DNA of 64,000 nt from Podarcis muralis. Taxonomy: Eukaryota. The stretch spans positions 45,198,001-45,262,000 of the forward strand of contig NC_135658.1 of NCBI RefSeq assembly GCF_964188315.1. The letters run 5' to 3'. The notes beneath the pieces are model-generated. The model saw only the letters and a list, made by a program, of their open reading frames with translations, ran no database searches and was not told where the DNA came from. The position numbers and the translations under genes were made by a program. Each line of letters begins with the position of its first letter. Positions within the stretch are counted from its first letter, which is position 1. Below are positions 33,301 to 37,000 of the stretch, piece after piece.

Positions 33301-34057
33301 TGTCAGAGACTGCCTCCAGGTCTCAGCTCACAGAAGACCAACGCTAGCCAGTAGAACTGTACAGAAGTCTTTATTGACATTTAGTTTCCATTTTCAAGCA
33401 CTAGCGTGCGTCTCTACGTCTAGACCCTAGACCAGCGAAGCCTCGTCTGAGTCTCCGCCCCCTGTACACCAGCTTAAGACTCTAGCCTTACTCCACCTTC
33501 TACGTTTCTCCTTCCTCCTCTGGGTCCTACTACCCCCCTGGGTGCCTTCCTTCCTGGATGCCTCAGAAGCGGACCCTTCGGACTCCTCCCCTTCTCTCCG
33601 GCGGGCTTTGGGACCCGGCTCTCTCTCCGGACTGCCCATTGCGCCCCCCTCTTGTACATTTGAACTTGGCGCGCGCGCGCTGCCCCTGACCTTCCTTTTG
33701 ACCGTTACCTCGCTCTCTGATGCAGGCGTGGCCAACCCTGACTCCTGTCCTTCCGCTGACGGAATGCTGCCTGCTGCCGATGTTTGGGACTCCTCCCCCT
33801 TACTGCTCTCCGGTGGAGAAGCTGGTCCCGATTTCCAGCTGCTGCTCTCTGAGTCCCCTCTGGCCCCTCCTTCCTGGGGTGTTCCCTCTGGCAACCCCCC
33901 GGCTCTGACCACTGGAGCCCCTTTCTGTGAATCCTCTGATTCACTGGAGAGACTTAGAGACCTCGGATGGCTATCATCGCTGACTTCTCCCTCCGAACCC
34001 TCTCCCTCGGTCTCTAATTCCTCCCTTTCCTGTCCCTCTGCTCCTGAACCCCTGACA
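33301..34057 (-). repeat. 3' LTR (757 bp)
   Basis: Direct repeat of 39087-39843 (offset 5786); no difference found by eye; preceded on the minus strand by the PPT. Confidence 0.98.
33370..33375 (-). terminator. LTR polyadenylation signal AATAAA
   Basis: tttatt on the + strand, ~70 nt from the LTR end and downstream of the pol stop. Confidence 0.75.
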
Positions 34058-37000
34058 TCCATCCCCCCCTCGAAGCCCCCCCTTCCCCCCTCCCCTCCTT
34101 CCGGTGCGGGTACTGGGTGCTCCGTCGTAGCGGGGGTGCTTGCAGGATACAGTTCGTCCCCCATGTACTCGTCAACGTCACTCTCCTCTGCTTCCATCTC
34201 TCTGTCTTCGTGCTCGAACCCCACGTTGTCCCCCAACACGTCCATATGCGTCTCGCCCCTCTCCCCCTCTTCGGGTGGTCCCATCCAAGGACCCCTCAGC
34301 CACTTCCTGCGCCACTGCTCCTCTGGTTGATCGTCCCACCAATACGAGTGGTCTGAGGCAGACCCCGGTGGCGAACCCACCTGGGAGCTGGGGACTGGTG
34401 CCTGTTCCTCGTCCGAGTCGAACCCCAGGAATGTGCTGGCTGAAAGAGTGGGTGTGAAGAGCCAGTCGTCGAAATACTCTGCTGGCATGGGCCTGTACGG
34501 GAAGATGGCATGAAACTCCTCTTTGAGCAGAGGCTCCTCCAAGGCATAGTCCGGTACCCAGCTGTTGGCAGTGGCCGGGGTACCCTCTCTGGCTAGGAAA
34601 TATTCTACTCCCTCTTCCCCCCATCTCGAGTCTAAAATCTCTGTGACCTCGTTGATGTGCCCCCTCCTAGGCGACCCCCCCTCTCTGGGCCCTTCTCTGA
34701 GCGGGTCTGGTGCTGTGTCTGGCTCCTGAAACCTATGAGGTGCTTTGTAGGGCGTGAGCACCGATCTATGGAACACCGGATGCATTCTGGAACCCTCCGG
34801 AAGAGCCAACCGGAAGGCCACTGGATTGACCTGTGCCTGGACTTGGTAAGGTCCTAGCTGCTTGTGCCCTAGCTTCTTCTTCGCTAACGATCTGGTCGGC
34901 ACTGCTTGCGCTGCTAACCAGACCCAGTCTCCCACCTGTATGTCTTCCCCAACTCTTCTGTGTCTGTCAGCCTGCACCTTGTATGCTTGCTTTGCTAGTT
35001 CTAACTGCCTCCTGAGTTGTTCGTGGACTTCCTGCAACTCCGACGCTAAGGCTTCCGCTGCCTGTGGCTCCCCCTCCCCCACTCTCTCTAAACCCGGGAA
35101 GGTTCTGGGATGCCTCCCGTTGTTGGCGAAGAACGGCGTCACCCCCGTCGACACGTGCTTCGTATTGTTGTAAGCGAACTCGGCGAGCGGCAGGTAGTCC
35201 ACCCATGTCGTGGGCTGCTGATTGGCGTAGCATCTCAGGTACTGCTGCATGATGGCGTTGACCCTCTCCGCTTGCCCGTTGGTCTGTGGGTGTCTCGCCG
35301 ACGCCAAATTGACTTTGACGTTCAGAAAGCCCATCAGCTTCTGCCAGAAGTTCGAGATGAACTGTCGCCCCCGGTCGGAGAGAATAGACCGTGGCAGACC
35401 GTGGACTTTGAACACGTGGTCTATGAACAGTTTGGCGGTCTGCTCTGCCGTGGCTACCTTCGCACACGGAATGAAGTGTGCCATCTTAGTAAACATGTCC
35501 ACCACCACTAGCACTGCTGTCTTTCCCCTCGAGCTGGGCAGATCCGTGACGAAGTCCAGGGCCACCCTCTCCCACGGTCCAGACGGTGTCTGCAGCGGTT
35601 CCAGCAGTCCCGCCGGCGGTCTGTGAACTGACTTGGCCCTTTGGCAGGTGTCACATCTCGAGACGTAGTCCGCTACTTCCCCCCGCATCTTGGGCCACCA
35701 AAAGTCTCTGGCTACGAGTTCGACAGTCTTTTCTTTGCCAAAGTGCCCGGCGGTGGGAGCGTCGTGTAGCTGCTGCAGGACCCTTGCGCGGAGGTCGTCT
35801 CCCGGCACGTATAGTGCTCCCTTGTGGAGGAGCAACCCATCGCGTATCTGGAACTCGTCGGCCCTCGCCGTGCCCCTGTGCACCTCCTCCATCTTGGCCC
35901 GTGCGAAGGGGTCTTCCCGCAGCGCGCGACGTACGGCGTCCAGGTCCACGGTTGCCGACGCGCATGCCCACGCTTCCGGTGCGAAAATGTGCTTGGCCGC
36001 CGACGGTGCCGCCTCCTCCAGGTATTGCGGCTTTCTGGACAATGCATCCGCCATCACGTTGTTGTCGCCTGGGATGTACTCTATCTTGAAGTCGAAGTCC
36101 GCGAAGAACTCTGCCCATCTAATGTGTCTCTGGTTGAGGAACCTAGCCGTGCGCCAGTACTCCAGATTCTTGTGGTCCGTGTGGACCTGCACTGTATGTC
36201 TGGCTCCGATGAGGAAGTGCCTCCATGCCTTGAATGCTGCATGTATGGCTAGCAACTCCCTGTCCCAGATAGTGTAATTCTGCTCCGACTTGCTGAGCTT
36301 CCTCGAGTAGAAGGCGCACGGCCTCCAGTCCCCCTGCTGGTCTTGTTGCAACAGGACAGCTCCCACGGCTCTGTCTGAGGCGTCTGTCTCCACCCTCATG
36401 GGTCTGCTGGGATTCACATGCAGCAGCTGCTCTTCGGACGCGAAGAGACGCTTGAGTTTCTGAAAGGACTGCTCCGCTTGCTCCGTCCAGATGAATTTCT
36501 TCTTCTTGGAGCTGAGCGTGTCGGTGATGGCCGCTGTCTGCATGGCAAATCCCTTGATGAACTTGCGGTAAAAGTTGGCAAAGCCGACAAACCGCTGGAC
36601 TTCCTTCCGATTGCGTGGGCTCTTCCAGTCCAAAACTGCGCGAACCTTGGCGCTGTCCATGGCGAGCCCCTTGTCCGACAACTTGTAGCCCAGGAAATCC
36701 ACCTCCGTCACGTCGAACTGGCACTTCTCCAGCTTGGCGTACAGCCTGTGCTCCTTCAGTCTCTGCAGAACTTCCCTGACATCCCTCTCGTGCGCCTCTC
36801 GCGATTCTGAAAAAATCAGGATGTCGTCCAGGAAGCATACGCACTTCTTGTAAAGGAGCCCCGCCAGCACGTGATGCATAAAGGCTTGGAAAGTGTGAGA
36901 GCCATTTTGTAATCCGAAGGGCATAACTCTGTATTCGTAGGTGCCCAGTGGCGTGAACATGGCCGTCTTCCACTCGTCGCCGTCGCGCATGCGAATCAGG

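Follow-up and report, generated by a model that had tools for sequence, protein, structure and literature searches.

A chromovirus-type retrotransposon of Podarcis muralis with a selected pol frame running through the U3 of its LTR and a candidate LEDGF-docking motif

The DNA analysed here, a 64,000-nucleotide stretch of the Podarcis muralis genome (hereafter the window), contains an LTR retrotransposon whose pol frame continues past the chromodomain, through the polypurine tract (PPT) and across the U3 of the 3' LTR. This arrangement raises the question of whether a promoter-bearing LTR region can also be maintained as protein-coding sequence, and what such an integrase tail might do. Our overall reading is that the pol frame through the PPT and all of U3 is under selection and quite probably provides integrase with a long, disordered tail for tethering and nuclear entry.

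A pol frame that enters the LTR

The element (33301-39843; minus strand, as are all features below unless stated otherwise) is a 6.5-kb, self-priming LTR retrotransposon of the chromovirus type, and a young, high-copy one. Its two 757-bp LTRs (5' LTR, 39087..39843; 3' LTR, 33301-34057) are bounded by TG...CA and show no difference from each other, and a 5-bp target duplication flanks the element (39844-39848 and 33296-33300); the exact LTR repeat extends one more base, by chance. Behind the 5' LTR lies an 11-nt primer site (39074..39084) that pairs with a self-primer at the 5' end of the transcript. The gag gene (37899..38975) ends in a CCHC knuckle and overlaps pol in the -1 frame, with a predicted -1 slippery heptamer (37953..37959) followed by a stem of -20.6 kcal/mol. 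The pol core (34660..37842) encodes protease, reverse transcriptase, RNase H and integrase with an SH3 (GPY/F) domain, and a chromodomain of HP1/CBX-like fold (34498..34659) follows at its C-terminal side.

In having gag, then this domain order, and no env, the element resembles the Tf1/sushi chromoviruses (Ty3/gypsy, Metaviridae; V-clade in vertebrates), a group that uses the same self-priming in place of a tRNA primer (PMC6317226). In an integrase tree that took in fish, fungal and other relatives, with no named reference (Sushi-ichi, Amn-san, Tf1), the lizard elements nevertheless form their own branch (support 1.0), with integrase identities of 34-42% to these outgroups. They also differ from the Tf1/sushi elements in adding a tail of 170-360 residues with one or more FxGF motifs.

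From stop to stop, the pol frame (38061-33427) comprises 1544 codons, covering protease, reverse transcriptase, RNase H, integrase, the SH3 domain and a weak chromodomain match. The earlier note had described 356 codons beyond the chromodomain, and these are confirmed as 440 nt (147 codons) ahead of the LTR and 628 nt (209 codons) inside it. They include near their start a motif resembling those of LEDGF partners (TIM-like, 34405..34476), continue as an acidic pre-LTR tail (34058..34404) with a conserved Trp-rich patch (34297-34344) and a G-rich PPT read as codons at its end, and then occupy U3 (33449..34057) throughout. The start of R (33427..33448) holds the self-primer copy (33448-33438), the final pol codons and the stop codon (33429-33427). 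Since the self-primer fixes the transcription start at 33448, this stop lies at +20 to +22 of R, in agreement with the earlier placement of the frame end just inside R. The rest of R together with U5 (33301..33426; AATAAA at 33375) is non-coding, and its indels are frame-random. At the junction of PPT and U3, the residues D-V-R are found in nearly all aligned members of all clades.

The tail has the biased composition noted earlier (E53 S49 G49 P29 R27 among 356 residues) and is predicted to be disordered, as proposed, with pLDDT below 50 over nearly its whole length compared with 77-91 in the chromodomain. Among the three basic clusters suggested to be NLS-like, the last fits the strict pattern K[KR]x[KR], whereas the first two do not. 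Pfam (above cut-off), ESM Atlas and PDB searches returned no match to the tail, and neither TRF-binding nor HP1-binding patterns were found in it. Single-sequence folding of the tail was uninformative.

Within U3, protein and nucleic-acid functions share the same letters. The earlier claim that promoter elements double as codons holds for the single TTAA of the LTR (33477, -29) and for GGGCGG (33460, -12), but the LTR contains only this one GC box rather than several, and TTAA is not a general feature, being absent from clade G. The proposed dual use of U3 is visible in individual codons of clades A, D and F, where the terminal motif has TTA at -29 as its second Leu codon, the adjoining Leu codon varies synonymously, and the self-primer is itself coding. 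This terminal segment (33466..33519), a basic cluster together with a hydrophobic-x-[S/N/C]-W motif, has a Trp that is invariant across all clades; in clade G this Trp motif is found at -28, and the frame of one G subfamily ends shortly upstream of the start site. The primer site covaries with its self-primer partner in clades A, B, D, F and G, with six different sequences of the 11-nt match in A, D, F and G. In three raw RNA runs and one presumed RNA contig set, coverage of the element was shallow, on both strands and higher over the LTR; these four low-depth sets contained neither splice joints nor a read pile-up at 33448.

The earlier note's rule that Ty3/gypsy pol usually ends before the PPT has known exceptions. 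Pol enters the 3' LTR in plant CRM group A and in some Reina elements, such as Bingo, where the part within the LTR specifies a putative targeting region (PMC3059260, PMC3605345). In CRM group A, however, the CR motif inside the LTR replaces the chromodomain and the primer is tRNA-Met, whereas the lizard element has its chromodomain upstream of the PPT, uses a self-primer, and extends its frame over all of U3 and the start site. Retroviral accessory genes of the nef/sag type likewise have coding sequence in U3, but they lie beyond env and are genes of their own, expressed from spliced RNA; the lizard U3 frame is continuous with pol in an element without env.

Protein-level constraint across the family

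The open frame is the state of the family and not an accident of one mutant copy. All 30 of the best DNA matches are open, leaving the family consensus without an early stop, as are 253 of 281 distinct clade LTRs that were not chosen for an open frame. Tails are open also in two deeply diverged clades (integrase identity 54-56%). Clade F was found with a query that itself contained the tail; judged by length, 36 of its 41 members are open for at least 100 codons. A count by motif pattern (22/41) is too low, as the pattern window cut the motif. In other species, where LTR overlap was judged from protein ends only, named Podarcis proteins of 65-68% identity end in the same terminal motif, and one further protein with an open tail has no closer match in this genome than about 64-69% identity.

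Codon-position bias, suggested earlier as a check, indicates that U3 evolves as coding DNA. Variants common to at least 3 of 54 family-A copies comprise 34 synonymous and 18 non-synonymous changes and 0 stops, giving a dN/dS of 0.21 (p 3.5e-8) in the pol frame against 3.1 and 2.0 in the other sense frames; for variants in at least two copies, the ratio was 0.24-0.30 under three transition weights. By comparison, gag yields 0.30 for variants common to several copies. Between subfamilies, median U3 dN/dS is 0.34 in clades A-E, 0.42 in F and 0.48 in G, with dS up to about 1, and variable third positions number 170 across the 209 codons versus 99 and 105 at the other two. Constraint is uneven along the tail: the second half of U3 is its most constrained part (0.13), while within family A the pre-LTR tail, taken over its full length, is only weakly constrained (0.6, p 0.07). 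Indels in U3 are not frame-random either, gaps in multiples of three making up 18 of 20 in U3 but 2 of 42 past the stop (nearest-neighbour pairs between subfamilies; 20/25 versus 1/47 with a softer gap cost). An all-pairs count in clade A, too noisy at low identity, gave 78 of 198 in frame. Taken together, the U3 tail is under protein-level purifying selection in three distantly related lineages.

These observations bear on two simpler explanations. The frame could be passively open, its purine-rich U3 being constrained as promoter DNA, and the low T content of the tail (12-13%) and the many young, near-identical copies are what such an account would predict. Yet shuffles that keep composition still introduce stops: only 3 of 20000 dinucleotide shuffles left the tail stop-free (8.7 stops expected), 0.4% did so for the U3 part alone, and the other two sense frames of the tail carry 5 and 12 stops. 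Passive opening is refuted by the frame-specific dN/dS, the third-position excess and the in-frame indels, and is scarcely credible. Alternatively, the constraint might belong to an antisense frame of 299 codons (33431-34330, plus strand) that has its third positions in common with pol, the sense tail being its shadow; shared wobble positions would yield the same dN/dS signal, and the window has this frame open, as do 4 of 8 representatives of clades A-E. It contains stops, however, in the other 4 of 8, in 7 of 8 F and in 7 of 7 G representatives, and nine columns retain the sense residue despite a change at the first or second base of the codon (Arg AGR/CGN, Ser AGY/TCN). Although these representatives were picked for an open sense frame, the unselected clade LTRs mentioned above are predominantly open too, and the antisense reading is largely refuted and very improbable.

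Many copies have nonetheless lost an intact tail. In family A, the tail is broken in 19 of 54 copies and the core, three times as long, in 10, mostly (for the tail) through single-base slips in the G runs of the PPT; such slips or other breaks leave no more than 142-146 codons in 13 of the 28 D copies that are readable. Tail lesions are scattered across the trees, with two on neighbouring tips. Copies of about 1347 codons were considered as a short-tail subfamily and rejected because the slips are scattered, and a putative family C proved to consist of the 5' LTRs of family B.

A candidate LEDGF-docking motif behind a weakened chromodomain

Two features next to the tail's origin suggest a function. 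First, alignment with HP1 shows that the three aromatics forming the cage of type I chromodomains are not kept: none of three remains in the window's clade, and one of three in clades F and G. Second, the pattern F-x8-FxGF, which the earlier note had missed, follows the chromodomain on its C-terminal side in 166 of 172 distinct open tails, 10-25 residues past the domain in every clade. Allowing eight to ten spacer residues, the distinct open tails that carry it number 101 of 106, 37 of 38 and 28 of 28 in the three groups; the pattern has spacings of 8 or 9 only, and is doubled in 28 and 20 tails of the last two (the tandem pair of clades F and G). The same pattern arises in 0.3-1.5% of shuffles and does not occur when the rest of the window is translated in six frames (114,914 residues); FxGF behind the chromodomain is absent from all 14 outgroup proteins (fish, fungal and other).

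This layout resembles that of TND-interacting motifs (TIMs), which combine FxGF, an 8-16-residue linker rich in D/E/S/T and a short helix with hydrophobic anchors, and bind the TND (PMC9987994). The TIM/IBM segments of JPO2/CDCA7L, KMT2A and IWS1, which bind LEDGF and HRP2, have the same Phe-ended helix, an 8-9-residue acidic or S/T linker and FxGF in a disordered context. In the window, a predicted short helix ending in F (residues 59-66 of the AlphaFold model, at a low pLDDT of around 50-80) precedes an 8-residue linker, FxGF and an acidic patch; the two Phe anchors are nearly invariant. The window's clade has a single copy, with five of eight linker residues S/T and no Asp/Glu, while clades F and G have acidic linkers and a tandem pair as in JPO2. 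The host genome encodes the LEDGF domain and carries the same layout twice in CDCA7L and once in CDCA7; the first of the CDCA7L copies corresponds to the M1 peptide of JPO2 in 6emo, a solved complex with LEDGF. When the PDB was searched by HMM for the element's motif, no LEDGF partner was retrieved; short linear motifs are too small for such searches, although the host CDCA7L peptide did match its own complex. The lizard candidate differs from the host TIMs in being carried by a mobile element, and the likeness is one of sequence layout. On these grounds, the short motif resembles those of host LEDGF-docking proteins, and the element likely tethers its integrase through LEDGF.

A mechanism consistent with these features would start from a genomic RNA that begins at the self-primer and includes the whole 3' U3. 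Gag-Pol would be made by a -1 frameshift and the tail translated as the end of integrase, where the motif may bind the TFIIS-N-terminal-type domain of LEDGF or HRP2; in the window's clade, phosphorylation of the S/T-rich linker might supply the charge for which clades F and G use Asp/Glu. The motif would thereby assume the targeting role of the weakened chromodomain, much like the short C-terminal motifs of Ty1/Ty5 integrases, and the basic end of the tail may aid nuclear entry. In Ty1 and Ty5 the integrase C-terminus is poorly conserved, yet short motifs within it determine nuclear entry and where the element inserts, namely an AC40-binding linker within a bipartite NLS and a Sir4-binding hexapeptide (PMC7459421). 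These yeast copia-type elements have other partners and no LTR overlap, and are compared with the lizard tail by analogy only. Lentiviral integrases also hijack LEDGF (PMC9987994), whereas the candidate contact here is a host-type linear motif in the tail. We consider it an even chance that this clade evolved host-type LEDGF/HRP2 motifs on its integrase in place of a disabled chromodomain, with the rest of the tail embedded in promoter, start site and self-primer; the tethering factor of lentiviruses would then have been reached a second time and independently, by motif mimicry and not through the integrase core. Counted against tethering are the broken tails, the weak pre-LTR constraint, the non-acidic window linker, the low-confidence helix, the PDB null and the copy distribution.

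Copy distribution and implications

LEDGF and HRP2 read active gene bodies (PMC9987994), whereas the copies are concentrated in terminal satellite and on a probable W, which are not obviously chromatin of the LEDGF type. C20 holds 18 of 149 copies, and of the 131 copies outside it 59 are no more than 0.5 Mb from a chromosome end, for the most part in satellite. The excess near ends is 35-fold, and 56 of 65 end copies occupy one major end per chromosome (p 4e-5), which in C1, C2 and C5 carries a 395-505 bp satellite. This pattern invites the view that the part of the tail encoded by U3 targets centromeres or heterochromatin, having converged on the CR motif of CRM group A, and steers insertions to the satellite-rich chromosome end; the strong constraint on the second half of U3 fits it, as does the Arg/Trp spacing of the terminal motif, which we take to resemble the CENP-C motif. 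Nevertheless, the two LTRs of a copy differ at more sites in end copies than in interstitial copies (mean 3.2 versus 1.7, p 0.002), and among the 18 youngest copies outside C20 only 3 are terminal. These findings, like the C20 enrichment, point to retention in low-recombination DNA. In C4, moreover, the satellite is at one end and most end copies at the opposite one, and the satellite is only a candidate centromere. PDB searches with the terminal motif gave no match, and a CENP-C family search of the genome none either. CRM group A is concentrated at centromeres; the lizard copies show a satellite-associated excess at one end, with mostly interstitial youngest copies. A targeting domain of this type appears improbable.

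The tail may also be a real protein that is not a tether, either cleaved off by protease or acting as an accessory in trans, for example as a decoy for TND-bearing elongation or silencing factors or as a nucleic-acid chaperone. The evidence from dN/dS and indels fits this equally, the distribution is unlike LEDGF-guided integration, and a broken tail behind a full core is frequent (16 of the 54 copies in family A), as expected if the tail can be supplied in trans. Against it, the motif sits in all clades at the place of the targeting domain in chromoviruses (PMC3059260), and no separate start or splice joint appeared in the low-depth reads. We regard such a role as unlikely, if less so than heterochromatin targeting, and favour the tethering tail.

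Entry of pol into the LTR is already known from plant CRM elements; for the motif mimicry, we found no description in the literature. To our knowledge, almost nothing is known about insertion-site choice by vertebrate LTR retrotransposons, and this clade offers a precise and cheap test: a 24-residue motif like those of LEDGF partners, a host domain whose complexes have been solved, and naturally occurring differences within the clade in motif number (one or two), linker type (acidic or phosphorylatable) and loss of the chromodomain cage (partial or whole). If the motif binds, LEDGF/HRP2 tethering would not be specific to lentiviruses and would have arisen by mimicry in a transposon. Independent of binding, the element provides a clean case of triple-coded DNA, serving as protein, promoter and reverse-transcription primer, which has been held for a long time, with the coding U3 present twice in each genome copy.

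The pol frame and its end in the 3' LTR

The element under study, a complete LTR retrotransposon, spans 33301-39843 on the minus strand; its two 757-bp LTRs are identical, and it is flanked by a 5-bp target duplication. Its gag gene (38975-37899, minus strand) overlaps in the -1 frame with pol, a frame of 1544 codons read from stop to stop (38061-33427, minus strand), and a slippery heptamer with a stem is predicted at 37959 (minus strand). Protease, reverse transcriptase (RT), RNase H, integrase (IN), SH3 and a weak chromodomain were recognised in pol with Pfam; the chromodomain was confirmed through HP1/CBX entries of the PDB that match it in sequence and in fold. 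The element contains no env-sized frame, and the nearest named proteins to its own are Podarcis proteins, which points to a lacertid lizard as host.

An alternative stop-free frame of 370 codons lies over RT (36143-37255, minus strand) and is open in several other copies of family A, to which the element belongs. In two RNA runs, 15-34 reads end at both borders of a 112-nt piece (37640-37751), whose loose end on the plus strand resembles a GT donor; a host transcript has probably exonised such a piece, antisense to pol, from some copy of the family. Interspersed repeats of SINE-like appearance (64-88% identity) lie at 5327-5425, 17708-18039, 21803-21953, 24406-24747, 30184-30282, 32941-33039, 43711-44052 and 54584-54925.

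The earlier note had claimed that pol continues for 356 aa beyond the chromodomain, and this is confirmed: the tail comprises 147 codons upstream of the LTR and 209 within it, and only 3 of 20000 dinucleotide shuffles gave a stop-free tail. Behind the 5' LTR, 11 nt are complementary to an 11-nt LTR stretch, a self-primer that makes a tRNA primer unnecessary; its pairing fixes the start of R at 33448 and thus places the pol stop at +20 to +22, close to the 20 nt estimated before. Both self-primer halves covary over six different sequences in A, D and two deeply diverged clades of the same genome, F and G, and they do so in family B as well. Self-priming is a known trait of the Tf1/sushi group, according to PMC6317226. 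Directly behind the self-priming site, positions 39066-39073 are hypervariable, with 26 different 9-mers among 56 family-A copies and a similar pattern in B. In Tf1, the capped 5' end of the primer is copied and untemplated bases are added; by analogy, the hypervariable bases would fit a per-insertion fingerprint of such capped-end copying and untemplated addition.

Candidate matches in the genome numbered 3560 and 3218 at first look, of which the best 40 and the best 150 were scored. All 30 loci from the DNA search are open with the same end as the window copy, and families B, D and E (LTR identity 74% to 67%) are open to the homologous end. In the older clades F and G, where integrase identity is 54-56% and the LTRs are shorter (F, about 400-480 bp; G, about 370 bp), the frame also crosses the polypurine tract (PPT)/LTR junction and ends in a basic cluster and an invariant Trp. 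The frame is open to the terminal motif in 253 of 281 distinct LTRs of the A-E clade, retrieved by DNA or chromodomain similarity, and in 19 of 25 from G, retrieved by a query ending before the LTR; in F, retrieved by a query including the tail, 36 of 41 are open for at least 100 codons. The 30 loci and the A-E LTRs speak against a family consensus with a stop soon after the chromodomain.

Coding selection on the U3

Selection was assessed on the odd rows of a list ranked on integrase and chromodomain alone. The window copy was aligned with 69 of these; after removal of 14 that were truncated or interrupted and two with a common flank, and with the odd rows in the block on contig C5 excluded, 54 copies remained. 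U3 variants common to at least three of them comprise 34 synonymous and 18 non-synonymous changes and 0 stops (dN/dS 0.21, p 3.5e-8), against dN/dS values of 3.1 and 2.0 in the other two sense frames, a codon-position bias of the kind that the earlier note had proposed looking for. Elsewhere in these copies, dN/dS is 0.06 in RT, 0.08 in IN, 0.30 in gag and 0.6 in the pre-LTR tail (p 0.07); within the tail, constraint is strongest in the second half of the U3 (0.13). Only one LTR indel is widely shared, a single base in non-coding R found in 25-26 copies. Between open-frame subfamily representatives, in protein-guided alignments with non-independent pairs, median dN/dS is 0.34 in A-E (44 pairs), 0.42 in F (45) and 0.48 in G (28), and above 1 in shifted frames. 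U3 indels are not frame-random either: in DNA-guided nearest-neighbour alignments, gaps are multiples of three in 18 of 20 cases in the coding U3 versus 2 of 42 beyond the stop.

An antisense frame of 299 codons (33431-34330, plus strand) lies over the tail, with wobble positions common to both strands. It is broken in 18 of 23 representatives, and sense Arg and Ser are retained via first- or second-base changes in nine columns, so that it is likely a shadow of the sense frame. Taken together, the frame-specific dN/dS, the in-frame gaps and the broken antisense frame make it nearly certain that the U3 functions as coding sequence, read in the frame of pol.

The tail is broken in 19 of the 54 family-A copies, 16 of which retain an intact core, and most breaks arise where one of three G runs at the PPT has slipped by a base. 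Because these lesions are scattered over the A and D trees and in-frame run lengths are still the commonest, they fit dead-end lesions, which may stem from germline mutation, RT error or assembly error; supply of the tail in trans is possible.

Tail motifs and their proposed role

In the predicted model, the chromodomain alone folds, and the tail has pLDDT <50 save for two weak helices, in keeping with the disorder anticipated earlier. Of the three aromatics of the HP1 cage, the chromodomain keeps none in the window copy's clade and one in F and G. Immediately after the chromodomain, sequences that are only 29-36% alike share five (nearly) invariant positions, each aromatic or Gly. These positions make up the pattern F-x8/9-FxGF, which is present in 101 of 106, 37 of 38 and 28 of 28 distinct open tails and duplicated in most F and G tails; it arises in 0.3-1.5% of shuffles, and the codons under it vary synonymously. 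The TND-interacting motif (TIM) is described in PMC9987994 as a helix, an acidic or S/T linker of 8-16 residues (CK2-phosphorylated) and FxGF, an essential element of every LEDGF and HRP2 partner known; fly JIL-1 also carries the motif, according to 10.1101/624023. In the host genome, exons upstream of the two zf-4CXXC genes show this layout, with two copies in CDCA7L (linkers of 8 and 10 residues) and a single one in CDCA7 (linker of 8); the first CDCA7L copy matches the JPO2 peptide of the solved LEDGF complex 6emo, and a LEDGF domain is present. Six-frame translation of the host DNA in the window (114,914 residues) contains the F-x8..10-FxGF pattern 0 times, and 14 chromovirus proteins used as outgroups lack FxGF in their tails. 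There appears to be an even chance that the candidate FxGF motif binds a LEDGF/HRP2-type domain.

The last features encoded by the U3 are a basic cluster and a hydrophobic-x-[S/N/C]-W motif, whose Trp codon precedes the start site (at -23 in A, D and F; at -28 in G). In A, D and F, a TTA codon fixed at -29 adjoins a freely synonymous Leu codon, a mark of DNA and protein constraint acting on one sequence and in line with the suggestion that the promoter TTAA doubles as codons.

The genomic RNA would most likely start at the self-primer, end beyond AATAAA (33375) and give Gag-Pol, with an integrase C terminus most likely ordered as chromodomain, TIM-like motif, long acidic spacer and basic-Trp tip. 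Fusion of the tail to integrase is highly probable. By analogy with the Ty1 and Ty5 integrases (PMC7459421), the TIM-like motif would tether and the basic-Trp tip would import.

Genomic distribution and relation to known elements

Of 131 family-A copies outside contig C20, 59 lie no more than 0.5 Mb from a chromosome end, where 1.3% would be expected; C20, probably a W chromosome, holds 2% of the DNA and 18 of 149 copies. B and D copies are distributed similarly. The two ends of a chromosome differ, with 56 of 65 end copies at one of them, and in C5 element-matching sequence makes up 41% of the first 200 kb. Among the matches listed, a satellite of 395-505 bp lies at the copy-rich end of C1, C2 and C5 and the opposite end of C4; it is a candidate (peri)centromeric repeat. 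Among the first 100 listed of its 2209 exact 15-mer matches, it was confined to one end of C1, C3 and C4; chromosome-end loci such as L149, L155, L160 and L098 carry it, and many elements are inserted in it. Divergence is higher among end copies, and of the 18 youngest copies 15 are interstitial. Low-recombination retention accounts for much of the excess at ends and on C20, with a possible residual end preference (3 of the 18 youngest at ends, p 0.0015). The distribution is neutral on LEDGF targeting. Elements are nested in one another and in LTRs at locus L236 and at C5:57000-68000 and 120000-141000, in one case with flanking LTRs just 73% alike; another copy (L290, G000:C20:29681278-29687930) lies beside TTAGGG repeats, ~0.7 Mb from the contig end.

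Extension of pol into the 3' LTR is described for plant centromeric retrotransposons (CRM) of group A and some Reina elements in PMC3059260 and PMC3605345. Unlike CRM group A, the lizard element lacks the CR motif and a tRNA-Met primer; like the Tf1/sushi group, it self-primes. No literature on this clade or on FxGF in retrotransposon integrase was found in a search that included the review PMC7397244 and covered subscription journals little. The text of papers yielded no description of the clade's LTR overlap, which family tables in supplements or repeat databases could contain. As judged from sequence comparison, the open U3 frame is real, conserved and selected. The element is a chromovirus whose tail offers a sharply testable candidate for host-factor mimicry.
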